This document shows, piece after piece, positions 15,148 to 64,000 of a stretch of 64,000 bases of DNA. Source of the DNA: Schmidtea polychroa (Eukaryota); contig CM097885.1 in assembly GCA_044892525.1 (NCBI GenBank), positions 23,810,001-23,874,000 on the forward strand, in the 5' to 3' direction. The number at the start of each line of letters is the position of its first letter. Position 1 is the stretch's first letter. A program made the position numbers and the translations under genes. The notes below the pieces were generated by a model. It was not told the origin of the DNA. It ran no database searches and saw only the letters and a program-made list of their open reading frames with translations.

Positions 15148-15500
15148 TCATTTCAGTTGTAATTCGTAAATTAAATGTTTTGCAGAAGGTTGACAATTAA
15201 ATGTTTTAGGGCTAAAATGACAACTTTGTCTTCACTGAAAACATTTACACAGAGAGTTACAAAAATTTGTATTCAATATTTGTAGTAACTGTAACTGACT
15301 CTGCTCTACAATTTTCAATTTTAAATGGTAAACCATTTGCATTGATTGATTTTTTACACTCAATAATGCGACATTTTCCTAAATTAAAGAATAAAATAGG
15401 ATATTTGCAACTTCTGTCTATTTCTACTGTCTATTTCTGTCGTTTTCTACTGGGAAATATCATTTGTTGAACATTTGCAATTGTAATTTCTTTTAGACAT
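15148..15500 (-). pseudogene. Compact TBP-like (TATA-binding protein fold) pseudogene, copy A, internally deleted
   Basis: Minus-strand translation: MIFPSRKRQK*..IDRSCKYPILFFNLGKCRIIECKK...PFKIENCRAESVTVTTNI, then a frameshift/deletion, then LCVNVFSEDKVVILALK. It is colinear with copy B at 27339-27759 and with the TBP repeat motifs LIFxSGKxVxxGxK. Confidence 0.7.
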
Positions 15501-16769
15501 TTTATGAAATATTTATGGAATATCAATTATCAAATATTAATATCTAATTTTAAAATGATTTCATTAATTAAATCAATTTAAACAATATCTATTATTTTAT
15601 AATTTGAAAATGGAATTAAGAAACGATGGGATTTTTCAAATTGTTGTTCCAAATATTAGTGTGAAAACTTTATTTGTTAGTAACTTACTTAAATGAATAA
15701 GGATTAGATTAAGAATGAAAATTATAATAAAAATGATATAAGACATTAGAATTTTCTATGAAAATGGCGAAAAATTGGTAACTCAGTATTTCTTACTTTA
15801 TTTATATATTTCTTGTAATGTGATTTTATTTATTTATTTAATTTTTATGGGATGGGACGCCATATTATCATAGAGGCAAAGACAATTTTATTAATTAAGA
15901 TATACATTTCAATAATTTACACTCAGTCAATTTACAGTTTGATTTTTCTCGCATTACTCTTGTAGTGGATAAATGTTGAGTGACACATTTTAAATAAAAC
16001 AATAATAAGTCTGTAAATATTAGGAATTAGTTGAAATGCTAATTAGCTTTGCACCAGCCTAGGACTGGATAAGGAACATATAGCTAGTGGCCAGATTTCG
16101 AAATTGCGTTAGCTGAAATTTTAGTACTTTTTTTCTGTTTTATCAATAAGTTCTTGACTTAAATACATTCCTCTACGATGCCTGGTCTATTGCTGACCAT
16201 TTTTTGTTTAAGGTTTCTTTAATATCAACTCTAAAAAGCACGATAAAGTTGCTAATTTTTGGCAAAATTAATAAATTTAGGATCAGTATTTATACGGATT
16301 TTTCTATACATAAATTAATTTAATATTTTCAACATTTAATTTAATTTAAATATTTATATTTCTTATAGATATCTATTTTTTATATTAATCAATCAAAATA
16401 TTTATATTACAATTTCTTATAAATATATTATTATGATTCTATTGCTAAAAATGCTTATATTATGAATTTTCTACTAGATTCTTTATTATAAGAAAATATT
16501 TCTTTAATTAATTATTATAAAAATTCATTATTATATTTTGATATTTTTGATAACTAATATTATTCAGTAGTTACACTAATCATGATATAAATAGTTAGAA
16601 TTATTAGTCTACCTCCATATATTTTGCTTTTATTATTCCTAAAAATAAAGTTAGCATAACACATGCGTCACAGATTGGTTAATTCTGACTGCTCGCGCTT
16701 GTGCGCACACTTCTTGCATGAGTGTAGACTCGAGTAGTTTAGTTTGGAATTTATGGGTGAATCGATTCT

Positions 16770-21852: not shown

Positions 21853-24591
21853 TAGGGCATTCAAAACCGAGAATTTTTTTGGAACCGGGTTTTCGGTGCT
21901 AGAATGTTCCAGGATCGGGTACCCGGTTCTGGAACCGGTGCTGAAAATGTAAATAAAAAATAATAAATTATAAGTAAAAAAGCATTTTTATTATAAATAA
22001 TTTTTATTATAATAAAGGAACAAACATAAAATCACAGAAATTCAATATATAAATAAACACAATTCAATTTAATAAATAAAAAGCTATTAGCTTCTCTAAA
22101 TGTCCGCTTCCGTTTTAAAATGTGTTCGTAAGAAACTTAAAATGTCTAAACTTTGATCGTTTAGTGATGATCTAATTTTTGTACAAACCATACCACAATT
22201 GGAAAATACGCGCTCTGAATCTACGCTCGTAGGTGGAATGGATAACAAGTTTTCATAACAGGTCTGGAGATTCTTTCCACGATTGCCCTCCAGTTCGAAA
22301 ATAGCCAATTCTTTTTTTATAACATTAGTTATGTCTCTAATTGTTTTTGTTGGTGGGGTAATAGTGGAATTTACATCCTTGGTAATGGCACGGTTAAGCT
22401 TTTCCTTCAACGACAATTCTATTCCAATTTCAACATCATTGTCTGAGTCCGACTCAGATGACTGCTGGCTTCCTTCGAGTGGATTTGATAGGCCAATTAT
22501 CATGTTTGCTATCGCTGACTTTGTCAAATGTTCAAAGTTTAAAACGGAGTCTGGATCCAGTTCCGCATAATCTTGTTTGCTTTTATGTAAATATTGCAGC
22601 AAACTAGCCACTTTCGTTCGTCGTTGATTTATGCGATAACAAAGCGAGTCCTTCATTTGCAGAGCAAATTCACTGCAACCTAGGTTGTTTATCATAAACA
22701 AAATTGTCGTGTCAGCTGTTAATAATGTCGCATCTCGGCGGCATAAAGCTTCTGCAGCTAATTTTATTGGTTCAAGTGTTGTTACTAAATCATTAATCAT
22801 ATTCCACTCTTCGTCTTCGAATGAAAAACTTGAATTGAGATCTATTAAAGATTTTCGAATGTTGTTTTTTAATTTACGAAATCTTTCAAGCATACTATAA
22901 AGGCTATTCCATCTTGTCTTTACATCAATTATCAATTGCAATTCCTTTTCAAATTCTTCTTTGATGTATTTTTGAAGAATTTCGTTTTTAGTTGATGATT
23001 TACGAAATAGCTTGACTACAGTTCTAATTTTGCGGATAAGATCATAAAAATTCTCACACAGTTCTGGTTCATTCGCTTCCAATTCAAGATTAAATTCTTC
23101 GTATTGATCGTCGTCACCATTACCATCACCATCTGAAATACAGTCATCGTCATCGTTACCAGCTGGAGATGGTTTAGGTTTTTGATAAAGGATATCCAAT
23201 ACTGCTAAATGAATTGCGTGAGCGAAGTAGAGTTGCTGCTTACAGGTCAATATTTTCCCAACCTTTTGTATTACAGCAGCACCGTCCGTTGTAATGCAAA
23301 TGATGTCTTCATGCAAATTCAAGCCAAATATTTGCAGCCTTTCTTCAATAAGTTTGATACAGCATTCTGCAGGCAACGATCCTCGAACTCGTACCAGTCC
23401 CAAATTCCAAAATTTACATTTAATGTGCGCATTTATGTTTAAATAGCGTCGGTTCTTACACGAAATCCACTCGTCGAAAGTGAGACTAAATAGCTTTCCT
23501 TGGGATTTCAAACCTTGTAATTCAACCTTATACTTTTCCCGAATTATTTTTCCATATTTCATTACCATGTATCGAATTGTTGTAGCTGATTTTGGAACTT
23601 CAAATCCACGCGCTATTAGCGACTTGCGCATCTCAATTGAACTAATGAAAATTCTGAATGGTAAACCATCGCCGGCTGTCATACGAGATAATACCGCTTC
23701 AAGAGTGTTGTCACGAATGATGAGGTAGTTTGTTAACGTAGAACTGTGTACATTTCTGCGCTTTTCTGGTGGTGCAGTTGATGTTGCTGCTGTACTTACA
23801 GAAGCATATCTCTTCACAGGTTTTACTATGATCTTGTGAATAGATGTAATATGTTTATGGAGGGAACTTGTTGAACCACCTGTTGTCTTCAATGGCTTAT
23901 CACATCGTTTACATTTCGCAAACTCACCAGAATTGTTGTCACGGAGAAAATACTCCCATACTGGAGTTTTTTCAATCAGCCGCTGGCTGCATTCCTCAAA
24001 TTTGATATTTTTTATAGACATGTCTAGTAGAAAAATTTGCGATAATTTTATGTTTTCTATAATAATAAAAATTTTACTTGCCTTAAAGATTAAACTGGAC
24101 ACTTTTGATTGATTTACTTCCGACCTTCCGAGTGACCAATAAAAATAACACTACATAAAAAAATACAATATATATAACCTATATAAAAACTCACATATAA
24201 AAAAAAACACAATATAACTTTAGAGTAAATTTAATACTTTCATACGACTTGTTATAGTTATAAATAAATCAAATTAAATTCAAATTTAATTATTATATTG
24301 ATGTTGTCTTAAAGAGACTGTGAATTATATTTGCAAATGTAATCAAAGGGCTTAATTTTGAACTAATCTTTTAATTCACAGTCATTATTAACGGAAATAT
24401 GTACTTGTATTATTTCGTAATGTAAATATTAAGCTGCGAACAGTATTTTGCTTATTTTAGAATATGAGAAATGCTTGCTCTCAGCACCGAAAACCGGGAA
24501 ATTTTACCAAATTCAATCTCGGTTTTCGGTTCCAGAAAATGTCCGGGTTTCACGGAAACCGGGTTTTGGAATCCCGGTTTTGGATGCCCTA
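21853..24591 (-). mobile_element. Full-length hAT DNA transposon (2739 bp)
   Basis: 17-bp TIRs TAGGGCAT(T/C)CAAAACCG with 1 mismatch. Perfect 8-bp TSD GTAGTTAC at 21845-21852 and 24592-24599. Subterminal AACCGG-type repeats. Confidence 0.97.
22096..24021 (-). CDS. hAT transposase with BED zinc finger
   Basis: VWEYF...CKRC...LHKHITSIH (BED), TFDEW, TDGAA, TRWNS, SERVFS. The likely ATG is at 24021 within the 668-aa ORF. Confidence 0.95.
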   Translation of the reverse strand: MSIKNIKFEECSQRLIEKTPVWEYFLRDNNSGEFAKCKRCDKPLKTTGGSTSSLHKHITSIHKIIVKPVKRYASVSTAATSTAPPEKRRNVHSSTLTNYLIIRDNTLEAVLSRMTAGDGLPFRIFISSIEMRKSLIARGFEVPKSATTIRYMVMKYGKIIREKYKVELQGLKSQGKLFSLTFDEWISCKNRRYLNINAHIKCKFWNLGLVRVRGSLPAECCIKLIEERLQIFGLNLHEDIICITTDGAAVIQKVGKILTCKQQLYFAHAIHLAVLDILYQKPKPSPAGNDDDDCISDGDGNGDDDQYEEFNLELEANEPELCENFYDLIRKIRTVVKLFRKSSTKNEILQKYIKEEFEKELQLIIDVKTRWNSLYSMLERFRKLKNNIRKSLIDLNSSFSFEDEEWNMINDLVTTLEPIKLAAEALCRRDATLLTADTTILFMINNLGCSEFALQMKDSLCYRINQRRTKVASLLQYLHKSKQDYAELDPDSVLNFEHLTKSAIANMIIGLSNPLEGSQQSSESDSDNDVEIGIELSLKEKLNRAITKDVNSTITPPTKTIRDITNVIKKELAIFELEGNRGKNLQTCYENLLSIPPTSVDSERVFSNCGMVCTKIRSSLNDQSLDILSFLRTHFKTEADI

Positions 24592-27338: not shown

Positions 27339-27759
27339 TTAGAAATTGACCAATGAAATTATCTCATTTTGAACATTGTCAACAAATTCCCTATACTCCA
27401 GATTTCTCAGCCCCAGCATGACAACCTTTCTACTAGCAAACACGTTGACACATATAGGGTTATATTTTAATATTTTAAACAATTCTGGTTCTAACATACA
27501 ATCACATTTATTTGACATGTTATATTGATACTATGTCCCATATCCATAGTAACGGTAATTGATTGGATTTTAATATTATTTATTCGATATTGTAATTAAG
27601 TAATATCTAAGGGTTACATCCCATGATTCTGCATTTACTTGTCTTGAAAAATATTATCGGTTATTTTCCGCTTCTATCAACAATTTGCTGTGGTTTTCCT
27701 GAGGGGAACCTCATATTCGATACATCAGAATTTCCTCGATAATTTATATTTGCTAACAT
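27339..27759 (-). pseudogene. Compact TBP-like pseudogene, copy B (near full length, ~140 codons)
   Basis: MLANINYRG...FPSGKPQQIVDRSGK*PIIFFKTSKCRIMGC, then a frameshift, then PLDIT*LQYRINNIKIQSITVTMDMGHSIN...MLEPELFKILKYNPICVNVFASRKVVMLGLRNL. KIQ, EPELF and FxSxKVVxxG match TBP repeat 2. Confidence 0.82.
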
Positions 27760-28398
27760 TATTAAATCATTTATGAAAATTAGTCTTTATATAAAAATTG
27801 AGCACGAGTTCATTAAATCACCGAATATAAACAAACAAACAAACAAACAAAAAACACACACACACACATATATATACATATAAATACATATATATACAAA
27901 TAAATAAGAACTTTGATAAAAAAAATATTAATCTAAAATGGTAAGAATTACCACTGTAGTGTTAAATGGAAAGGTAATTATTCTTTAAATCTAATTAACT
28001 TCAAGTACTTACAACTAGCTACTAACAGATAAGTGCCAACAACTAGATCCCAACAAGAAGCAATCAGCTAGGTACCAGATATCAAGTACTATCTCTTAAA
28101 CAACTGGACACACTTACAACAAGCTACTTACAACCAACTAAGTATTCTTCATTGTATTTTATCAAATGCTTTTAAATTAATTTTTTTATTTGTGTTCAAA
28201 AAATCTTTAATTACAATCAGTAGAAAAACCTGACAATTTGATTTATCAAAAACTTAATCATAAGGAATAATTTGGATTTCATGTCGCTATAAATTATTTT
28301 GATATATAAACTTTTTGATGAAGATCCAATTTCATAAAGGTGATTTATCTTTATATGGAATTTATGGTTTTTGAGACATTTTTTTGAGAGAGGAATAG

Positions 28399-30369
28399 TA
28401 GGGTGGAGCTTATTTTTGAACTTTCAAAATATTACCTTCTTACCCTCCCATTTTGTTCCTATATATGAAAGAAAAATTCAGGCAAAATATGAACACAATT
28501 GAACAATATTTAGGGGTAGCTCAAGGACAGAGAAGTTTCTGATACTCTTAAGCAGCGGCCGCCCATTTATTTACGGTACTTTACTATAGTAACTGAGAAC
28601 TAAGTAAATTGAGACTTTCTCAGACTCTGATAATCATACAACATTTCAATCCTATTTTTACAATATACAATTAACACAAATTCTTCATAGTCCAGGCATG
28701 ATCAGACTTGTTTAGTATGTTTACTGTGTGGACTGGCTATTGCAGGAGTTTGACAAATGTGTTTATAAATTTAAATTGTAAACAGTTGATAACACTACTA
28801 TTAAAGTGAGCATTAAATTGCTGGTAGGCCACTGAAGTGAAGCAAGCCTTCCTGAATCTATAGCTGCTGGTAAGTTAGTTGAATGTTATTTGAATATTGA
28901 ATATTATTTTCAATGTTTAAGTGTGAATAGTAATTAAATGAAGATATAGATTAGTTAGATAAGTAAATGTGAATTTTGTAATACAATTATTCAAATTAAC
29001 ATATCAATCCATGATTCCAAAGTCAATGCTATTTTTATAATATTCATTTCAGATTCATTTCTGTAAGAAAATGTCATCAGTTGCAAAAGCAACACGATCT
29101 CAAACTGAGTTGTATCTTCTTGGCGATTCCGTGACTCAGTTACGTGGCAGCAAGCTGCCATCTTTACGTATGGCTCTTGGACTCTTCCTACATCACCATC
29201 TGGAACTGAAAGAGACAATAAGACAATCATCGGCTGTTACCATTACAGAAGTATCGAAGTTTTGGCAGAAAGCGAGGATCCCGATGAGAGATCATCAAAA
29301 CTGCCAAACCAAGGTTGAGCATGCATTTGAAGAATGGCGTCTTCTGAAAAAGAACAAGGCACGATTATCAGCAACTCAACTAGCGAGAGAATCAGCTTTT
29401 AGTTCCAAGCTCGAAGATCTCTTTGATCTTGCTCATGCTGATGCACTGACCAGCCCCTCGGTACTACAGGAAGATAAAAATTTCTTGTTAGCCCAGAGAG
29501 AAAAAGGAAGAAGGGGGTCGATGACTGGTGCAGATGAAAAACTTGCTGCTAAGGAGAAAAGATCATTTGAACGAGATGAGCAGCGAATGGAGCAAGTGAA
29601 GCAGTTAGCAGCTTCTACCGCTGAACTGATATCGTCATCTTCTGAAACCAGCTTAGATGGTGGAAACATGAAAAGTGGAGAAAATCTGAGTGATGATGCT
29701 GCAGGAGGCAGCACATTTCGGACGCCAAAAAGAAAGAGGGGGCGAAAAACTGTTATTACTCCAGAACTTGCAGTAGCTTTAGATAGAACTAAAGTGTCAG
29801 ATCGCAAGGCTGTTTTCGTTATTGCAGAAACTGCTAAAAGCCTGGGACAGAACATCGATGAACTGCTGCAGAAACAGTTACATCTCTAAAAATTGTAAAT
29901 GACCATGCTGAGCGTGGAGTGGCCCTCATTCAGGAATACAGTGGATTAATCACCCGTGATGAAACACAACTTCAATTCTTGCTGCAAGTTGTCCAGGACC
30001 ATCGCAAAATGTATCCCGACAGCAGGAAAAAGACTCTGTCCGCCATCTCTGGGTTTACATAATAACAGTTAATTTCAAGTTTGCTGGACATTTACAGATT
30101 GTTTGTGTCAGAAGCTAAAGAAACATTTCACTATTAATGTCTATGTGTGTAACACTGAAGTTTGCAAAAAAATAAAATAAAATAGAATCAGAATTTGTTG
30201 AATTTACAAAAATTTTATCATATTTCAGGCACTTGAGCTACCTCTAAACATAAAAATTTATTGCTTAAACTTTTTATACAGTGTTTCTATACCATAAGGA
30301 AGAGATTAGGGGGGTAAGACTTTCAAAAATTATTTTTTTATTTTTTTTTATTTTTTAAGCTCCACCCTA
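28399..30369 (+). mobile_element. Internally deleted hAT-superfamily (hATm-like) DNA transposon
   Basis: 14-bp perfect TIRs TAGGGTGGAGCTTA / TAAGCTCCACCCTA. The transposase N-terminus is fused out of frame to its extreme C-terminus. No clean TSD. Confidence 0.8.
29071..30063 (+). pseudogene. Truncated transposase (N-terminal ORF 29071-29889 plus out-of-frame C-terminus)
   Basis: KLPSLRMALGLFLHH...FWQKARIP...DLFDLAH...FLLAQR...ALDRTKVSDR, then after ~29865 in another frame SLKIVNDHAERGVALIQEYSGLITRDETQLQFLLQVVQDHRK. Confidence 0.85.
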
Positions 30370-30611
30370 TTCCTGGAATAGTGCGAAGAACTCAAACTGC
30401 ACCCTGAGGGTTGCCTTGACATATCATAAGAGTATAAAAGCAAAACAAACGAATGTATACAAGCGGTGTAGTAGTAGAACTAGAATAAAACCCATGAGAT
30501 AAATATTAAATATATCGAAATCTCTCAATTGAAATCATAATTGAAACTAATTAAATAATAAAATTATATTAATTTAATGACATAATGACAAACATATCAC
30601 AAAGTTTGTTT

Positions 30612-31994
30612 CTAATTTTTGATAAGTTCTAATAACTTTGAGTATCCTGAGAATTTTAAAGATTTTCTTTTTTTCAGCATCACGTAGAGATCTCTAACAG
30701 TAATTCTTTTCTTAAAATTAAATTTCGGTTTTGCTTCAATGATCTTATTGTCTGGTTGCAATTTCACGGCTTTCCTTTTATTGAAAGCTCTCACAGCTTC
30801 TCTATTAATATTGTTGATTTGCTGCATGTTGTAGATATTTTTACAATTGTTGCGCAACATTTCACGAGCTTTCTCTCTTTCTTGCCGTTCAAAATCTTTA
30901 TCTGCTAGTTTTTCTTTGTATAATTTTTCTTTTTCTTGTCTTTCTATTTCTGAATTTTGATAATTTCTAAACATTTCTAATTTGTTTAATTGCGATCGAG
31001 TGTCAGTTGTCATTTCTAGATTGGGATTTTCTTTAGTAAATTCTTCTTGACAATTATATCGGTGGCGCGTATAATACGCTGTATGGACCAGTAATATTTC
31101 AGTGAAATGGTGAATAGCGTTTTCTAAGTAATTTAACGCATCTGAAGAACAATTTACCGAGTATTTCTCCAACATGATTTCGTACTTTTTTACATTAAGC
31201 ATATGTTCTTCTTTAATACTTTTTTCACCATTTTCTGGGGATTTTGTGATGTTGACAAATATTTTTTGACTTGGTGTTTCTTGTTCATGGTTTTTGTTTA
31301 CCAATTGGTTTTCGTTTATTTGAGTTGATTCCTTTGAAGTTTCTGTAAGCATTTCAATTTGATTTTGAAATTCGAATCTTTGAATTTTAGTTGGTTTTGG
31401 ATTGTTTTCCAATTCTGGGCATATTTTTCTATTTTTGATAGGCTTAGATACTTGAAAATGTGGTTTATGCTGATCAGGATTTGTGGAAGGATTTGATAAA
31501 ATATTTAGCACCTCTGGTTTGCTTGGAATTTGATTTGAATTAGCCAACATTTGATTAGTGGAAATAGTTTTAATTAAATTTTTACTATCATTCTGTATAA
31601 TTGGTAATATCAAAGGCTTTGAAGGGTGATTTGTCTTGATCTTTGAGATATTTATCAATTCTGGTTTGCTTATTTGTTTATTTTTCTTTGATTTTTCGGC
31701 TTTTAGTATTTTTCTTTTTATGGGACTCTGTTGTTGTGAAGGCAATTTTAGGTTGACTCCTTCTATTGAACATTTTTTATTAATCAAATCTGTCATAAAC
31801 TCATTGACATTCTTTTTTAACTTATTAACAAATGAAATTGGTAATTGAAATAATTCTAAATTTCGAAGAAATTGTTCTGGAGTTTCTCTTTTGTCGATAA
31901 AATTTTGTAAGGATCTCTTGATAGATTCTTTAAATTTAAAATTTTCATTTGTTACAATTTTCGATAAGTATATACAGGAATTTTTAGTAGTCAT
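30612..31994 (-). CDS. TAF4: Divergent intronless TAF4-like TFIID subunit (TAFH/NHR1 domain + histone fold + conserved C-terminal domain)
   Basis: N-terminal SLQNFIDKRETPEQFLRNL...LKKNV ~ TAFH (LVQNLLDGKIEAEDFTSRL...LKRSL). Histone fold SSDALNYLENAIHHFTEILL. TDTRSQLNKLE ~ SDVRAQLKFFE. NREAVRAFNKRK ~ NLTALAAIGPRKK. KRITVRDLYVML ~ TRVNLRDLIFCL. Confidence 0.82.
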   Translation of the reverse strand: MTTKNSCIYLSKIVTNENFKFKESIKRSLQNFIDKRETPEQFLRNLELFQLPISFVNKLKKNVNEFMTDLINKKCSIEGVNLKLPSQQQSPIKRKILKAEKSKKNKQISKPELINISKIKTNHPSKPLILPIIQNDSKNLIKTISTNQMLANSNQIPSKPEVLNILSNPSTNPDQHKPHFQVSKPIKNRKICPELENNPKPTKIQRFEFQNQIEMLTETSKESTQINENQLVNKNHEQETPSQKIFVNITKSPENGEKSIKEEHMLNVKKYEIMLEKYSVNCSSDALNYLENAIHHFTEILLVHTAYYTRHRYNCQEEFTKENPNLEMTTDTRSQLNKLEMFRNYQNSEIERQEKEKLYKEKLADKDFERQEREKAREMLRNNCKNIYNMQQINNINREAVRAFNKRKAVKLQPDNKIIEAKPKFNFKKRITVRDLYVMLKKRKSLKFSGYSKLLELIKN

Positions 31995-32327
31995 TTTTAT
32001 TTTTCAAAATTATTTTAAGATAAAGGAAATAATGGAAAAAGTAATTTTTAAACAATTTCTTTTTAAATTCATTGGTCAAAATTATTTTAAATTTAAATTT
32101 AAATAATAAAAGATTTTTATTGTGACAAAATATAATATATCATATATGTTGTTTATTTATTGTTTATTGTAGTTTATTTATTGTTCGTTAATGATCTTGA
32201 AAATATTTTTGATAAATTGAAATTTTATTAAGAGTTTGAATTTAATTGATTATTCAATCATTATTCATTTTTTGACCCGCTTATAAGTTTAAGTGGCTAT
32301 TTTGACTTGTAAATTTGACCTAAATTT

Positions 32328-32354: not shown

Positions 32355-33722
32355 ACATTCATAATTTTCAATCTTCATTTTTCTTTTCAATTAATTAATG
32401 AATAAAATATTGAAAGTTACAATTTAATTTTAAAAATTGTTATATTTAAATGACATTTATATTATATTAATTTAAACAAAATTACTATTAAAGAATTAAA
32501 AAGTAACATTTTATTTTATTAAAATTAATATGAGGGAAATAATTAATTGCAATATTGGAAAATAATTCTTTCGACATTTATTGATTTAAAATAAATAAAG
32601 CAAAAATTAGAAATTAATTCTTCGTCATTTTGTTAAACAAATAAAACAAAAATCAAATAAATTCCTTCGATATTCAGGTGATTTATAGTAAATAAAATCA
32701 AATAAATGGAAACTCTTTTTAAATAAACAAATGGTTAATAAATAAAAAAATAAAATAAATCAAATAAATTCATTCAAGTGATTAATTTAAAGTAAATAAA
32801 ATAATATAAATGAAAACTTTTTTAAATAAAAAAATGGTTATTAAATGGAAAAGTAAAATAAACAATTTTTAAAATCTTAAAACATTTTCACCTAATTATA
32901 AAATAATTAGATATTTATCTTTCTTAGTCATTTTTAATCAAATATTTAATATTCATAACAACAAATTAAATCTTTAAAACCTTTTAAAACTTCTTTGTGT
33001 TGGAGAAGATCTGTTTGCACATTCTCAACTCGCAATTAGTGTTTTATATCCAATGCTCACCCTACAGGAGATTTCTACTAGTCAACATTTGGTAAGTTCG
33101 TGGGTCGTTGGTAGAAATCGGCCATAAAACCACTTCCCTTGCCTCAATTTTCAATTAGTCGTGGATCGAATTGGATTTATACCATGAACAATTCTATTTA
33201 TTTGATAATAAATCAGAAAGGATTGTAATAATAAATTCGAATATATTTCGCTGTTTTTTCAAATATGTAAAACTATTTTCTTCTGATTTAAATTTTATTT
33301 GAATTTGGACAGTTTCATATTTGTGAAAAATAGGGCTGGAATAGCTGTACTGACCTCATGGAAATGTATTTTCCTTATAATTTCGTTTATAGTGTTGATT
33401 ATCATAGGAATCTATGTAATGTATTGACAACAAAAGATTGTGAAAGTAATTAAATGATAAATTATTATATTTTTACATAAATTTATGTTATTAAATTTTC
33501 TTTAGTTTGTTTTATTTTTTTATTTATTATTTTAAAATTCTTTAATTAATCTTACTCGAGGAAATCTTTAGGGGGAATTTTAATTTTAATTATTTTAATT
33601 TTTATTTGTACATCTTAACAATTTTATATCCGTTTTTTGAACCTTCCAACAAGGTTGTGACTCATGTACTTGTCATTACCATGTTAGTAATTATTATATT
33701 ATATTTTTACATAAATTTATGT

Positions 33723-33828
<106 letters not shown>

Positions 33829-35789
33829 TGCAATAACTTAGGGGAAATAGTCAGTATTCATTATTAGTTGATTGAATGTGTTGGAATATTATTGGTGTTA
33901 GTATTGAATCCTCGTGCTCTTCTTCAATTTTCAAAATAAGGCTCAAAACATTTTATTAAAGAGGTTTGATACAATAATTTTTATTTAAAATAAAAAAACC
34001 AATCAATAAAAATGCATCCAATTATCAAGAAATTAATTAAATTTATCTTAGAACTAACTTTAAATTTTTAAATATTCATTCAATCCACATGAAATTCACG
34101 AAAATGATAAAAATCCTCAAAAACCATCAACTCTAAAAAAAATTACTAATGAATAGACACCAAAATTTATCTAAATAATCTTTCAAATTATTTCATTAAA
34201 ATTGAAGACAACACGCTGGAATTGATCATTACATTCAATTAAAATTAACTAAATCAAGATATGAACTTTGATAAAAAAATATTTTTGTAAAATGATTAGA
34301 ATTAACACTAGTGTTCTTTAAATCTAATTAACTTAGTCATAATTTTCTTTAATTATTACTGCGAATTCTTATCATCTTTCAAAATTTATTAATTAATTTA
34401 AAATTGCATCCTTTAATTTTCTTAATTTTAAATTTTAGCATTTAATTTACCAAAAATAGCATTTAATTACTTTTTTTTAAATATATCTCTTATTATTATT
34501 TCATAAAAAATCTATTTAAATTTATCTTTTAAAATTATTTCAAAATATTTTGCATCTCAAATTGTCAATTCTCATCGTTGATAGTAAATTGTTGACAATA
34601 AAATATTACTGTAATTTTAAAATTTTTACTTTAATTTACTTTTTTTAAAAGTATTACTATAATTTAAAAATTTTAATTTTAATTTAATTCTAGACCATTG
34701 ATTACTCAAGTATAAAATTTTAAACCTTAATTTACCTATTTATCATTAATTTACTTTAATTTAACCCTTTATTTAATTAATTTAGCCCTTGTTTACCAAA
34801 TATAGAAGTTTAAAATATAGACCATTGATTACTTTAATTTAAAAATGTATCCCATAATTTACATAATTTCCATCTAAAATTTATTCATAAAAATATTTAT
34901 ATAAAATTGTCATAGAAAAATATTTTATAAGTTTTCATTTTAAAAATTCATTTCTCATCAGATGATAGTTATTCAAAATATCTGACAATAAATTATTAAT
35001 TTAATTTAAAATTTTACATTAATTTACTTTACTTTAAAATTTTGAACTTAATTACTTTAATTTAAAACTTAACCTTAATTCACCAATTTAATTTAATTTA
35101 CTTAATTTTAAAATTTGGTCCTTAAATTACTAATTTGAACCCTTAATTTACTTAAGTTTAAAAATTTAGAACTTAATAACTCAGTAATTGGTCTCAATAA
35201 GAATTAATTCTCAATGAGAATTAAGAAAAAGGATATTAAAGAAAGAAAGAAATGTATTTTCGGGAAGAAGATTGCAAAGTTCCAGGAGATTGACAAAGAC
35301 TATCTTATAGTCGAAAATGTTTTTTCATTAAATACATTATTTGCAGCTAATGGTTTAAATTATTACTTTATTGTTTTAAATGATATTTTGAAAATAATAA
35401 TAATAACAGTAATAATAATAGTAATAAGATCTTTGTTCTATTGGAGTCCTGTTTTATGAGTCATTGTCTTTGTTCTAAAAAAGATGAGTCATCGATGAGT
35501 CATTGTCTTTGGTAAAGTGTCTATATGTCTTTCTTTAAAAATGATGAGTCATTGACTTTGTTTTGGAGCGTTTAACTAGTACTTTATATTGTTTTATAAG
35601 TCTTGCCCTTTTATTTTGCATTCCTGTGGATGCTGCTGTGTGAGTTGTATGACTTAAATTGACAAAAAATTGATTTGAACTGCTATATTCCAAATTATCA
35701 GTCGACAAACCTACAGCGCTTCACCATGCGCAGTGCTTGTGTAGAAATATATTTACCATTTCAAGAGACCAATCGAAATCAAGGAAAGA

Positions 35790-35870
<81 letters not shown>

Positions 35871-36240
35871 TCTTTTAAAACTTAAATATATTGTACAAAC
35901 ACATTTTAAACGTTAATGTTGACTTATTTAACAAAGACATAATAAAACTAAAATTATTAAATTAAAGATGCAATAATTAAACCAAAATACATGACATACA
36001 GAATACATTAGATATTTGATGGACAAATCTACTAGAAAATTATAATTATTCATTGATGTAGTAATCAACAAAAAAACAAAATAGAGAAAAATTCAATAAT
36101 TAAAATAAAACAAGAGTGCAAATAAAATTATATATTGGATTTTTTGGACCGACTTTTATTTTAGATTTTTAAGGAAGGTGGAGGAAATTGCTACCACAGT
36201 TGTGATTTCTAGTCACTATTCTAGTCTGCGGTACAGAAAT

Positions 36241-36529
36241 CACCTGATTTGTATGATGTTCGGTGGTTTATGGATGTCCCAGGTAATTTAAACCCCTTTG
36301 CTTTAACTGTTTCCTTACTGCCTAAAAGACTATAACATTTCGGGCGTAAGAAAACCCATTCAGAATATCCTAATCCATTTCACTCATCTTTAAACTTCCC
36401 GATGACTGAGTCAAGGTTTCTATTATACAAGGGGTGTGTTGGATCATAGTTCGATGTAACCAATAAATTATCTGAGATCGTCTGAGGTAATAATATTGAT
36501 AATTTAAGATTTTTAATTTCGAGAAATGC
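36241..36529 (-). pseudogene. Polinton-type PolB C-terminal fragment (unit 1)
   Basis: LLPQTISDNLLVTSNYDPTHPLYNRNLDSVIGKFKDE*NGLGYSEWVFLRPKCYSLLGSKETVKAKG is homologous to window 885-1110. Confidence 0.88.
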
Positions 36530-37632
36530 TAAATATTTTACTCAATTACCTTTTGCTAAATATTATTTTAAATGACTAAAAATGACAAAGTTAACCAATA
36601 AATTAGTCGCTCGAAATAGGAATATTAACGAAATATATTACATAAATGGAAATATTTCTCACTAAATTACCTAAGAATTTCTAACTAATATATATGTGCC
36701 TTAATTAATATACCGTTGCGACCAATACCTTTACGACAAATACCGATAGGGGGACAAAATATCTTTGCGGATAAATATATATATATATATAAAAGAACTT
36801 ACAATATGCTATGATCTTTATTGATTAATTTGTTATATATATCAAGAGACTGATATTCATAAATTAACTAAAACTACTCAAATATATTATATTACCTAAA
36901 TGTTTTTACTTAATGATACATTAAATGATCTTGTTTTTTTAATATACCTATGAGTTAATTTCTAAAATAATCATGTTTTTTTATCATGCATTATTTGAAT
37001 ATAAATTTGCTGAATGTGAAATGAACAAGTTTCTTGTTAAATTTCGTAAGAATTTAATAATTAATGATATTTTGCAGAAAGGTATATAAAATCTCTATGA
37101 CTGTTTTCGTCAAAATAAATTAGTTCCTAAAAAACTCACAAAGAATTGCCCTATAAATTTTATTCGAAACTACCCCCAATTAAATGTTTTGTTGTTTTAT
37201 TATTTTCACAAGTTTATTATTATTATTTTTTTAAATCGGCATTAATTGAGAAGGAGATTTCGATTTCCACTTGTCTCATTGGAAAACCTTATAAAACAGG
37301 ACTACACTAGAACAAAGATGTTATTATGATTAATATTATTAATATTATTGTTATTATTACTATTATTATTATTATTTTCAAGATATTATTTATCAAAATA
37401 ATATTATCAATATTAATATTATTATTATTATTACTATTATTATTATAAAGTGATGATTTCTTGGTAGGAGCATTTATTATTTAAAACAATCATTTAAGCG
37501 TTTTGGTGCAAATAATGTATTTAATGAAAAAGATTTTCGACTTGTAGTCCTTGTCAACCTCTTGGAATTTTCTTACCGAAAATACATTTCTATCTTTCTT
37601 TTATTTTCTTTTTCCTAATTCTCATTGAGACC

Positions 37633-37816
<184 letters not shown>

Positions 37817-38273: not shown

Positions 38274-39179
38274 TTAATATTTTGGTAAAATAATTTTGAC
38301 ATTTTTGTGCAGAATCTTAGAAAAGGAGGCGATATTCGATTTTGACAATCCAATTGAATCTGCTAGCAATTTTGCGTCTACGTCGACATTTTTTAAGTCA
38401 CAGACCAATTGAATGCAACATACCGCAATCAAAACGCTTCCTTTAATGCGAAATTCACTAATTTCACTTACATTTTTTACTGCTTCTTTTACAAGCTTTT
38501 CTATTTTGAAATCCGTCACGTCTAAATAATATAAAAATCTGCCAACGAGTAAATCTGGCTTGATTTCACGCGTTGGTCGTTTCAATGCAGTTTGGATAAG
38601 TTTTAATAACTTTTTGAATTTCTTTTCATCAACCAGTGGACATTCGTTTAATATTTCTTTCGGCAGTCTCGGAACTTCATTGTCTACGCAAGCCAAATAT
38701 AGACATACGCAATTCAAGGTCGCTTTGTTTCGCTTGACACAGGCCTCTGATTTTGTAATTTCATGGAGTAGAGATACAGCTCGCGAATAAACATTTCTAT
38801 CTACTTTTATTCTTTCACACAAATCTGCGATTTGTCGTTTCTGGGACGCCAATGACACTTCTTTGCTACTCTTAGTTGAAAGGAATTTAAATTTCGAATT
38901 TCCATTTTCATCTAGAAATCTGAGGTTAAAACCTGTTTGAACGGCAGTCGATGTTTGTCCATCTGTTTCTGACGTTTCCACCTCTCCGACTCGACAAGCG
39001 TCATGTCCATCCGTTCCATCGGATGCGAATGTTCTCCATTCACTAGAAGGATCAATCGCCCGTTCAACTACAACCAGACCACAAGCGGAACATATCATAT
39101 CTCCAGTTCGACAATCAGTTATTAGAACTCTATTTGGATGATATTTACAATGAACCATTTTCATATTTTCATTATTCAT
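38274..39179 (-). CDS. TFIIB: Transcription initiation factor IIB-like, intronless, copy 1
   Basis: Zn ribbon CKYHP-x-CSACGLVV, B-reader IDPSSEWRTF...DACRVG, two divergent cyclin-like repeats (CLYLAC...VPRLPKEI). Confidence 0.93.
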   Translation of the reverse strand: MNNENMKMVHCKYHPNRVLITDCRTGDMICSACGLVVVERAIDPSSEWRTFASDGTDGHDACRVGEVETSETDGQTSTAVQTGFNLRFLDENGNSKFKFLSTKSSKEVSLASQKRQIADLCERIKVDRNVYSRAVSLLHEITKSEACVKRNKATLNCVCLYLACVDNEVPRLPKEILNECPLVDEKKFKKLLKLIQTALKRPTREIKPDLLVGRFLYYLDVTDFKIEKLVKEAVKNVSEISEFRIKGSVLIAVCCIQLVCDLKNVDVDAKLLADSIGLSKSNIASFSKILHKNVKIILPKY

Positions 39180-46180: not shown

Positions 46181-47086
46181 TTAATATTTTGGTAAAATAA
46201 TTTTGACATTTTTGTGCAGAATCTTAGAAAAGGAGGCGATATTCGATTTTGACAATCCAATTGAATCTGCTAGCAATTTTGCGTCTACGTCGACATTTTT
46301 CAAGTCACAGACCAATTGAATGCAACATACCGCAATCAAAACGCTTCCTTTAATGCGAAATTCACTAATTTCACTTACATTTTTTACTGCTTCTTTTACA
46401 AGCTTTTCTATTTTGAAATCCGTCACGTCTAAATAATATAAAAATCTGCCAACGAGTAAATCTGGCTTGATTTCACGCGTTGGTCGTTTCAATGCAGTTT
46501 GGATAAGTTTTAATAACTTTTTGAATTTCTTTTCATCAACCAGTGGACATTCGTTTAATATTTCTTTCGGCAGTCTCGGAACTTCATTGTCTACGCAAGC
46601 CAAATATAGACATACGCAATTCAAGTTCGCTTTGTTTCGCTTGACACAGGCCTCTGATTTTGTAATTTCATGGAGTAGAGATACAGCTCGCGAATAAACA
46701 TTTCTATCTACTTTTATTCTTTCACACAAATCTGCGATTTGTCGTTTCTGGGACGCCAATGACACTTCTTTGCTACTCTTAGTTGAAAGGAATTTAAATT
46801 TCGAATTTCCATTTTCATCTAGAAATCTGAGGTTAAAACCTGTTTGAACGGCAGTCGATGTTTGTCCATCTGTTTCTGACGTTTCCACCTCTCCAACTCG
46901 ACAAGCGTCATGTCCATCCGTTCCATCGGATGCGAATGTTCTCCATTCACTAGAAGGATCAATCGCCCGTTCAACTACAACCAGACCACAAGCGGAACAT
47001 ATCATATCTCCAGTTCGACAATCAGTTATTAGAACTCTATTTGGATGATATTTACAATGAACCATTTTCATATTGTCATTATTCAT
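46181..47086 (-). CDS. TFIIB: Transcription initiation factor IIB-like, intronless, copy 2
   Basis: As copy 1. Differs by E4D and KATL->KANL. Confidence 0.93.
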   Translation of the reverse strand: MNNDNMKMVHCKYHPNRVLITDCRTGDMICSACGLVVVERAIDPSSEWRTFASDGTDGHDACRVGEVETSETDGQTSTAVQTGFNLRFLDENGNSKFKFLSTKSSKEVSLASQKRQIADLCERIKVDRNVYSRAVSLLHEITKSEACVKRNKANLNCVCLYLACVDNEVPRLPKEILNECPLVDEKKFKKLLKLIQTALKRPTREIKPDLLVGRFLYYLDVTDFKIEKLVKEAVKNVSEISEFRIKGSVLIAVCCIQLVCDLKNVDVDAKLLADSIGLSKSNIASFSKILHKNVKIILPKY

Positions 47087-54077: not shown

Positions 54078-54983
54078 TTAATATTTTGGTAAAATAATTT
54101 TGACATTTTTGTGCAGAATCTTAGAAAAGGAGGCGATATTCGATTTTGACAATCCAATTGAATCTGCTAGCAATTTTGCGTCTACGTCGACATTTTTCAA
54201 GTCACAGACCAATTGAATGCAACATACCGCAATCAAAACGCTTCCTTTAATGCGAAATTCACTAATTTCACTTACATTTTTTACTGCTTCTTTTACAAGC
54301 TTTTCTATTTTGAAATCCGTCACGTCTAAATAATATAAAAATCTGCCAACGAGTAAATCTGGCTTGATTTCACGCGTTGGTCGTTTCAATGCAGTTTGGA
54401 TAAGTTTTAATAACTTTTTGAATTTCTTTTCATCAACCAGTGGACATTCGTTTAATATTTCTTTCGGCAGTCTCGGAACTTCATTGTCTACGCAAGCCAA
54501 ATATAGACATACGCAATTCAAGTTCGCTTTGTTTCGCTTGACACAGGCCTCTGATTTTGTAATTTCATGGAGTAGAGATACAGCTCGCGAATAAACATTT
54601 CTATCTACTTTTATTCTTTCACACAAATCTGCGATTTGTCGTTTCTGGGACGCCAATGACACTTCTTTGCTACTCTTAGTTGAAAGGAATTTAAATTTCG
54701 AATTTCCATTTTCATCTAGAAATCTGAGGTTAAAACCTGTTTGAACGGCAGTCGATGTTTGTCCATCTGTTTCTGACGTTTCCACCTCTCCAACTCGACA
54801 AGCGTCATGTCCATCCGTTCCATCGGATGCGAATGTTCTCCATTCACTAGAAGGATCAATCGCCCGTTCAACTACAACCAGACCACAAGCGGAACATATC
54901 ATATCTCCAGTTCGACAATCAGTTATTAGAACTCTATTTGGATGATATTTACAATGAACCATTTTCATATTGTCATTATTCAT
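54078..54983 (-). CDS. TFIIB: Transcription initiation factor IIB-like, intronless, copy 3
   Basis: Protein identical to copy 2. Confidence 0.93.
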   Translation of the reverse strand: MNNDNMKMVHCKYHPNRVLITDCRTGDMICSACGLVVVERAIDPSSEWRTFASDGTDGHDACRVGEVETSETDGQTSTAVQTGFNLRFLDENGNSKFKFLSTKSSKEVSLASQKRQIADLCERIKVDRNVYSRAVSLLHEITKSEACVKRNKANLNCVCLYLACVDNEVPRLPKEILNECPLVDEKKFKKLLKLIQTALKRPTREIKPDLLVGRFLYYLDVTDFKIEKLVKEAVKNVSEISEFRIKGSVLIAVCCIQLVCDLKNVDVDAKLLADSIGLSKSNIASFSKILHKNVKIILPKY

Positions 54984-62038: not shown

Positions 62039-62104
62039 TGGATTTTTTGTCATTTTTTAAATTTTTATTATAAAAAATGAATAATATAAATCTTAAAAAA
62101 TAAA

Positions 62105-64000
62105 ATGAAAACAGGGTATCCAATAAAAAATTTTTTTCTAAAAATGAATTGTAATATTTGCAATAAAGTTTTTAAAAATAAAACTGGATTAATTTCTCAC
62201 TTAAAATCGAAAGCTCATTTATTAAAAGAAAATAATCTTAATGATACAAATTCAAAACTTTGTCTTAAATGTAAAGGAAGATTTCTACATTCTGGATATA
62301 ATAAACATTTTGAAAATTGTATCGGGAAAAATAGAGAAATATTTACATGTCCTCATTGTAACTTTTCAACAAAACTAAATTTCTATTATTTAGAACATAT
62401 AAAAGAATGTAAAAATAAAAAACAAAATTCTGACGATGAGGAATGTCATTCAGAAGGAGAGCCTGATCATGTTGAAAGAGAAAAATATAACTGGGATAAT
62501 TTTAATCATATAGATGAATTTCAATTAAAAATTAATGGGCCTGCAACTCCTGGAGAATATATAAATAAAAATAAAAAAATTATTAAAAATTCTTTCACTG
62601 AAGCTTTAAAAAATTATAAACCGACAAGGTATAATGTTATAAAATATAAAATTATAATCAAAGCAAAATACTGGCGAGGAGCAGAAGAAAAGACAACACC
62701 CTTAGATGTTGAAATTGGAATACCTTTTAAATATTTATTTTCAATTAAAGGATTTGATAAAACCATCAAAGAAATAATTAAAGCAGCAGAAGCAAAACAA
62801 GAGGAAGTAGAAAATGAATTAGGAGATTCAAACTTAGTATTCAACTCTTTCCAAACTTTAGTGATTGATTATTGGAGAGGATTACCACCCAATCCTAAAT
62901 CTTATATTCCTACACCCTTTAAATCTAAAAATGTTATAAATGTACAGAATAATGATAACAAATGTTTCATCTGGTCAATACTTGCACATTTACATCCTCA
63001 AGCAACAAATCCCCAAAGAGTTTCAAAATACAAACAATATGAAAATGAATTAATATTTCCCAAAGGATTCAAACACCCAATGAAACTAGAAGACATTCCA
63101 GAATTTGAAAAATTAAATAATCTTAAACTTAATATTTATGAACATGTTATAGGGAAAGAAATTATTCCAATTTATATTTCAGATAGTGGAACCAAGGATA
63201 ACGGAGCACAGGACAACGAGATATATCTTTTAATCTTGGAACAAGAAAATAATCAACATTATGTTTTAATAAAAAACTTTCAAGCTTTTACATCTCCAGA
63301 GAATCCAACTAGTGGAGGAGGAACATGTAAAAGATGTCTTCATTATTCAACAACTAAAAACTCTATGATTAAACATACAAGATTTTGTGAAAAAGATGAT
63401 CCAGCTTTAATTAAAATGCCTAATAATCCCAAGATGTATTGTAAAAACTTTTCAAATTTACTACAAACAGTTGGAGTTCTTTATGGTGACTTTGAATCTA
63501 TAAACCATAAACAAGATTTGGTTTATCAATATTTAAAAATAATAGAAAAAAATAAACTCATGGATTTATGGAACTCCTCAGGAGAGAAGATGAAACCAGA
63601 GAGGATGAAAGCCTTTCTAAGAAAAAGAAATAAACCTAATAGTGTTAAAAAAACTAAACAATTACCATCTGCTTATAAATTATTATTTAAAAGTAATTAT
63701 CCTGAACTCATAGAATCTAGAGAATATTCAATTCTAGGAGGTACCCCTGAAGAAGTCTTGAATCATTTTACTAAAAATATAAATGATCTAGAACATGAAA
63801 TATTTAAAGTATTAAAAACAAACTATCCTCAAAATATTTCTAATCAACAACAACAAGAATATGAAAATACTTCCAACTGTTGGATGTGTAAACAGAATAT
63901 TCTTCCTGATGAAAAAGTTATAGATCATGATCATTTAAAAAAGGAAAATAATTATCGAGGAGCAGCTCATAAAAATTGAAATCTTAATTGCCATACTCCT
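62105..64000 (+). CDS. Polinton/Maverick-type DNA polymerase B, N-terminal part (zinc fingers, exonuclease I motif, inserted endonuclease VII/HNH domain)
   Basis: C2H2-like fingers, INVQNNDNKCFIWSILAHLHP...NPQRVSKY, HYVLIKNF, CKRCL, YGDFES, CWMCK...KVIDHDHL...YRGAAHKN*NL. The TGA at 63977 falls at the conserved Cys of AHxxCNL. Confidence 0.9.

Follow-up and report, generated by a model that had tools for sequence, protein, structure and literature searches.

An intronless and strongly diverged TAF4 paralog beside a TFIIB-like array in the planarian Schmidtea polychroa

Results

Gene content of the locus

The window, by which we mean the whole 64,000-nucleotide stretch of Schmidtea polychroa DNA analysed here, carries on its minus strand an open reading frame that resembles TAF4 (Table 1). 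The original prediction of an intact, intronless ORF of 460 aa was borne out, since this is a single frame with neither stop nor frameshift and with an intact start context; across 2000 base shuffles of the ORF no stop-free run exceeded 116 codons. Three 301-aa TFIIB-like ORFs in 7.9-kb repeat units are found in the same window and, as claimed, on the same strand. The distance of about 2 kb given for this array is right for its longer repeat-unit block at 33973 (1,979 bases from the TAF4-like ATG, with a first repeat-unit fragment at 1,228 bases) and wrong for the nearest TFIIB-like ORF, which is 6,280 bases away.

Mobile elements are also present. An open 641-aa hAT transposase with a BED finger lies at window 22096-24021, and a Polinton with genes for polymerase B, a packaging ATPase, a protease-like protein, an integrase and a capsid starts at window 62090-64000. 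A similar Polinton start follows a TFIIB-like unit at C1:24.10 Mb (L011).

Table 1. Features of the TAF4-like locus (window positions, except for the last row)
Feature	Position	Strand	Remark
TAF4-like ORF	30612..31994	-	460 aa; coding region without intron
TAFH-like five-helix domain	31749..31994	-	aa 1-82
Histone-fold domain and following helix	30762..31211	-	aa 262-411; aa 279-411 align significantly (local)
TAF4 conserved C-terminal motif	30633..30710	-	aa 429-454; weak, 22/2000 shuffles
Absent TAFH intron site (I33/D34)	31895..31896	-	phase 0 in canonical TAF4 and ETO-like gene
CCAAT box GACCAATGA, candidate NF-Y promoter element	32069..32077	-	74 bases before TAF4-like ATG
Young high-copy DNA transposon, inverted ends, gene outside	28396..30371		inserted about 240 bases past stop codon
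Partial, rearranged copy of 7.9-kb repeat unit	33222..37758	-	no TFIIB-like ORF
Intronless TFIIB-like ORF, copy 1	38274..39179	-	301 aa; CCAAT box 76 bases before ATG
Intronless TFIIB-like ORF, copy 2	46181..47086	-
Intronless TFIIB-like ORF, copy 3	54078..54983	-
Broken remnant of Polinton-type TBP-like gene	15269..15688	-	outside TAF4 locus
Second broken Polinton-type TBP-like remnant	27348..27780	-	three pieces
L002, young 5'-truncated copy of TAF4-like gene	G000 C1:23685140-23685718

Relationship to TAF4

TAF4 (PF05236) is the sole Pfam family matched by the protein, at 14.8 bits for the whole sequence and 20.8 bits (E 3.6e-4) for its C-terminal 212 aa, both below the cut-off of 33. The TAFH profile (PF07531) scores 14.9 bits (E 0.026) on aa 1-100 and does not reach its cut-off of 27. 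Matches to both HMMs are thus present, both under the curated cut-off.

The canonical TAF4 of the same genome, encoded on contig C3, is a better reference. Both proteins are colinear end to end at 26% identity, with 33% in the histone fold, 32% in the C-terminal motif and 21% in the linker, and pairwise BLASTP gives an E-value of 2e-13. The TAFH region scores 60 against 29+-5 for shuffled sequences (0 of 2000 as high), the histone-fold region 162 against 41+-7 (0 of 500) and the C-terminal motif, found at the expected end, 39 against 23 (22 of 2000), while the alignments of the linker (50 of 500) and of aa 1-40 alone (1002 of 2000) are not significant. The linker is lysine-rich (64 K vs 38) and nothing lies N-terminal of TAFH. 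Of the complete TAFH, histone-fold and C-terminal architecture that had been proposed, the order of the modules is borne out by the comparison with the genome's own TAF4 and not by curated HMM scores.

A search of 1.84 billion representatives returned a single match, a TAF4 (P0001; E 5.8e-6) that is 70% identical to the canonical protein. Within the histone-fold block 43 of 145 columns of the TAF4-like protein equal P0001, versus 120 columns in canonical TAF4, and by this sequence comparison the TAF4-like protein is evolving fast. Atlas features place 10/10 best family matches in the family or clan of TAF4 (top 0.87), which serves as a lead only. An orthologue of the gene in other species was found neither by word-indexed protein search, in which 0 of 7,394 candidates proved a relative, nor among the 1.84 billion representatives. 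The C-terminal half matched none of the PDB sequences at E<=10; the C-terminal half of canonical TAF4 finds human TAF4 at E 6e-17. With Pfam scores below cut-off and no PDB match, its structure may have diverged away from a role in TFIID.

Judged by its sequence the protein is a TAF4 by descent, although it falls under the Pfam cut-off, and we are highly confident that the gene is an intact TAF4 paralog. A standard annotation would miss so diverged a gene, leaving it absent from gene lists. In the literature searched, with subscription papers outside its reach, no flatworm TAF4 paralog is described; the available part of PMC6672047 names TAF4B and TAF4x among the duplicates of vertebrates, flatworms being left unmentioned.

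Predicted structure

The N-terminal 90 aa, modelled from one sequence, are predicted to form five helices (pLDDT 89.6). With this model Foldseek ranks ETO-TAFH first (E 2.4), and upon re-alignment of 84 chains TAFH structures take three of the top four places (Z 5.3-5.6). Human TAF4 TAFH aligns with the model over 78 residues at an rmsd of 3.4. Sin3 PAH3 ties with the TAFH structures (Z 5.5) and such Z-scores are common among helical bundles. Each of these structural signs is weak, but joined to the sequence test they make the putative TAFH assignment reasonable. The histone fold has a pLDDT of 30-40 in the single-sequence model, and fold searches with the whole protein were uninformative, their matches being dominated by long helices.

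Canonical TAF4 and the origin of the intronless copy

The assembly searched (G000, 781 Mb) contains a canonical, intron-containing TAF4 at C3:108.99 Mb (88 bits), hence the TAF4-like ORF is not the sole TAF4, and its description as a specialised paralog is supported. Genome searches with the TAF4-like protein and with P0001 gave only the TAF4-like gene, the canonical gene and the truncated copy L002. Canonical TAF4 is intron-poor, with one exon from mid-TAFH to the stop, a predicted 46-base GT-AG intron inside TAFH (chosen from 11 frame-keeping splice pairs), the single intron within the alignable part, and another acceptor upstream of TAFH; its first coding exon was not found in the 10 kb read upstream. 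In an ETO-like gene at C3:59.91 Mb the same TAFH column is interrupted by an intron of equal phase (phase-0 junctions QKYI^NKEI in canonical TAF4 and FSLL^CNRI in the ETO-like gene), which is why we consider this intron ancestral to the domain.

The TAF4-like gene reads QNFI-DKRE at this site, unbroken, and thus lacks the parental intron at the one testable position. Absence of an ancestral intron favours an mRNA-derived copy, and the retroposed origin that had been suggested is, on this single intron position, probable. Intron loss following DNA-level duplication is less favoured. The alignment 5' of the intron position is not significant alone, which counts against the argument for retroposition. 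Neither a poly-A remnant nor a target-site duplication was seen at the gene; survival of these is not expected at such divergence.

Integrity of the reading frame

When the canonical frame was subjected to simulated neutral point mutation until 30% identity was reached, 0 of 200 runs stayed stop-free and the minimum was 15 stops. Because simulated neutral decay always gave stops, selection has preserved the TAF4-like frame over the greater part of its history.

The truncated copy L002 lies 155 kb from the TAF4-like gene and about 1.1 kb behind an intronless tetraspanin-like ORF. It is 94.5% identical to the gene, lacks the first 260 codons and has lost eight histone-fold codons. Since its sequence runs on through the point at which the young transposon subsequently landed, 240 bases beyond the stop codon of the gene, L002 is a DNA-level fragment. 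The shared span shows 5 synonymous and 8 replacement changes, plus two junction codons and the stop codon, which are uninformative on selection because one side is a fragment.

An open frame can also record past selection in a formerly functional gene that has recently died or become dispensable. The young transposon just behind the stop, a truncated and internally deleted copy as a sign of regional turnover, and an orthologue that was not found would all agree with a dead gene. It is nevertheless an improbable explanation, as all 460 codons are free of stops and frameshifts, start context and CCAAT box are intact, and the four coding differences observed in run X1 trace to the contig of the truncated copy, which stops at the duplication boundary, rather than to a broken allele.

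Mobile elements around the gene

The adjacent transposon has at least 269 candidate copies in the genome, and none of the 40 scored extends into the gene's side beyond window 30387. In run X1 the flanks of the gene have single-copy depth, except for two short repeats. No TAF4-like match was found in 13 ten-kb stretches flanking TFIIB-like copies nor elsewhere in the genome search, which places the gene outside the amplified TFIIB-like unit. Among viral contigs no relative of the gene was confirmed (35 pattern matches), and tblastn detected no Polinton core genes in the stretch from 28 to 62 kb inside the window.

These results do not support the idea of an element-captured TAF4: there is one full copy, it lies outside the adjacent transposon and it was not co-amplified with the 13 TFIIB-like copies. 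A partnership with TBP paralogs of the window is likewise not supported, those sequences being broken remnants of Polinton-type TBP genes. Polinton remnants and TBP-like genes on both sides might still suggest that a Polinton or another element carries the gene as cargo, for use in element transcription together with the element's TBP-like protein. With one full copy and one local fragment genome-wide, flanks of single-copy depth apart from two short repeats, and neither the 40 scored transposon copies, viral contigs nor nearby Polinton core genes connecting it to an element, we regard this as extremely improbable.

A CCAAT box at a similar distance

When the upstream 300 bases were shuffled, a CCAAT box fell in the interval observed for the TAF4-like gene in 30 of 20,000 cases. 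Most TFIIB-like copies have AACCAATGA 75-76 bases before their ATG. CCAAT boxes are common promoter elements. The upstream region of the TAF4-like gene has a promoter likeness score of 51 with the window TFIIB-like genes, 36 with a C3 copy and 53 with an unrelated RING gene. Common promoter ancestry with the TFIIB-like unit was rejected; as the likeness beyond the box is unspecific, we speak of a shared promoter type rather than of demonstrated shared ancestry.

A CCAAT-to-ATG pattern has 20 matches genome-wide (reversed control 0), ten of them by construction, the pattern having been built from the TAF4-like and TFIIB-like genes. Of the other ten, two open a long frame (ferritin and a 462-aa RING protein), two lie ahead of a Bcl-2-like sequence (by eye) that soon runs into a stop and six have frames of at most 10 codons. 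The RING-finger ORF is intronless and has the same AT-rich CCAAT layout (L092, C2:122.516 Mb). Both Bcl-2-like copies (L097 and L098, at C4:9.03 and 10.23 Mb) stop after 27 codons.

TFIIB-like family and further diverged factors

Genome-wide we found 13 full intronless TFIIB-like frames among 25 Pfam matches, at C1:23.85-24.19 Mb and C3:38.2-39.1 Mb. A window copy differs from one C3 copy by 14 synonymous and 13 replacement codon changes, which suggests purifying selection on the family. Canonical TFIIB lies at C3:131.48 Mb; three more intron-bearing TFIIB-like loci and two BRF1-like copies were also seen. Run X6 (presumed RNA) contains an 876-base contig over just the TFIIB-like ORF, such contigs indicating presence only. 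It is of the C3 type, with 17-18 of 20 listed variants in five of six C3 copies and 0-1 of 20 in the seven C1 copies, so it does not match the copies beside the TAF4-like gene. Contigs of runs X5, X6 and X7 (all presumed RNA) do not cover the TAF4-like ORF, which again bears on presence only.

Two TAF12 genes lie 17 kb apart at C1:257341591 and C1:257358233 (L046, L047) and have the same exon boundary; the second is 55% identical in the exon found, no further exon having been located, and apparently intron-containing. The TAF12 exon search for further protein relatives gave 0 of 2 candidates. TAF9 loci occur at C1:42.71 Mb, C2:96.54 Mb and C3:72.59 Mb (L077-L079), two of them, on different contigs, with identical translations, and the third diverged and apparently intron-containing. 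The TAF6 search yielded histone H4 and a CENP-S-like match (by eye), the TFIIE-beta search nothing above cut-off. The mitochondrial COX1 can be read cleanly with the flatworm code, a weak test given that a single AAA codon separates the codes. At another locus (L066, C433:39812-41149) a COX1 frame shows no internal stop when read in the standard way, which sets it apart from the mitochondrial copies; its contig is possibly bacterial or otherwise foreign within the assembly.

Discussion

A possible role in reproduction

Our tentative reading, which we consider quite possible by analogy with known TAF paralogs, is that the TAF4-like protein replaces TAF4 in a TFIID-like complex at a restricted reproductive stage, likeliest in oocytes or early-embryo blastomeres. 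Ancient reverse transcription of a TAF4 mRNA would have given an intron-free second copy that acquired an AT-rich CCAAT promoter of the NF-Y type. The histone fold would pair with one of the two TAF12 proteins and the re-shaped TAFH surface would bind activators other than those of canonical TAF4, so that the protein could take the place of TAF4 in a variant TFIID of that restricted state, being expressed in the same cells as the adjoining intronless TFIIB-like family. Joint action with the TFIIB paralogs is plausible from the genes' adjacency, their common lack of introns and a CCAAT box at like distance.

Oocyte and early embryo are preferred over testis because a published planarian table has early-embryo transcripts for TFIIB, TFIIE-beta and TBP-like factors. 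The available part of PMC5293490 defines 1,048 early-embryo-enriched transcripts in S. mediterranea, and its table contains two TFIIB-like, one TFIIE-beta-like and three TBP-family entries, the majority almost silent in adults, compared here by annotation and not as established orthologues of S. polychroa genes. One TFIIB-like transcript reaches an RPKM of 19.9 at stage 2, compared with 0 in each of the two adult samples. RING genes occur often in the table; a TAF entry is missing from the part available, where a protein this diverged could have escaped annotation. The accessible text of PMC12751228 mentions neither TAF, TFII nor TBP.

A less likely competitor is a testis TAF role, exerted in male germ cells as known from Drosophila Nht with its partner Rye. 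Retrogenes are frequently testis-expressed, and the genome has a second TAF12 that could act as partner. According to the available text of PMC3469439 the Nht (TAF4L)/Rye (TAF12L) heterodimer drives spermatid differentiation genes, and planarian NF-YB is described as male-germline-specific (PMC4909293, in part), which could be connected to the CCAAT box of the TAF4-like gene. The same excerpt reports a somatic NF-YB2, so the box gives no pointer to testis. Moreover, TFIIB-like transcripts of S. mediterranea have RPKM 0 in sexual adults (PMC5293490, available table); if the TAF4-like gene follows its TFIIB-like neighbours, it would not be testicular. A function outside TFIID, be it the titration of TAF12 or of activators or a part in some special transcription route, for example at heterochromatic or piRNA-source loci, would suit its very fast divergence in the columns compared with P0001, its lysine-rich linker and its location in a region rich in Polintons and transposons. 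A precedent is the TFIIA-L paralog Moonshiner, which acts at piRNA clusters in Drosophila. We assign this role a low probability, since all three TAF4 modules appear to be kept in order and identity is highest in the histone fold and the C-terminal motif, as expected for incorporation into TFIID.

Replacement of TAF4 in a reproductive TFIID might be part of a wider arrangement, rather unlikely as a whole, in which the yolk-dispersed early blastomeres use a second Pol II initiation machinery, retroposed in part and under a common CCAAT promoter, that is switched off as blastomeres become adult stem cells. Its members would be the TAF4-like protein as TFIID core subunit, clustered with the TFIIB-like array, TAF12- and TAF9-like proteins, the amplified TFIIB-like family, and TFIIE-beta- and TBP-like factors.

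Comparison with known systems

Like TAF4 (PF05236 and PF07531) the protein has a TAFH-like domain, a low-complexity linker, a histone fold, a long helix and a putative C-terminal motif in order, and the gene would derive from this genome's own TAF4. It differs by its 26% identity, its scores under the Pfam cut-offs, the lack of any sequence before TAFH and the missing ancestral intron. As with Drosophila Nht, we see a lineage-specific diverged second TAF4, and the genome here also has a diverged TAF12 and TAF9. Nht is not known to have a TAFH; the TAF4-like protein keeps a TAFH-like domain. Their origins are separate, and Nht is testis-specific with Rye as partner (PMC3469439, as excerpted).

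By architecture and evolutionary pattern the gene would resemble Nht or TAF4b. Vertebrate TAF4B, which retains its introns, and fish TAF4x are likewise TAF4 paralogs with full architecture. TAF4B stems from whole-genome duplication (PMC6672047, available part), unlike the intronless and far more diverged TAF4-like gene. TAF4b is required in gonads, according to mouse work cited in the accessible part of PMC4909293. Vertebrate oocyte TBPL2/TFIIA is a precedent for an exchange of the initiation machinery at the oocyte and zygote stages (PMC8589422, in part), but works without TAFs, whereas in our case it is a TAF that varies, and TFIIB variants adjoin it.

Lineage-specific TAF4 paralogs are already known and by itself the gene is a further example. 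What lifts it is its company, since diverged TFIIB copies are unusual in animals: the available text of PMC2180226 gives TFIIB as single-copy in fly, worm, yeast and human, and compared with the single Drosophila gene the TFIIB-like family is multiplied here. The early-embryo TFIIB, TFIIE-beta and TBP-like transcripts in the published planarian time course passed unremarked in the accessible part of PMC5293490. If the TAF4-like gene indeed belongs to this early-embryo set, the basal transcription machinery would be exchanged when blastomeres turn into neoblasts.
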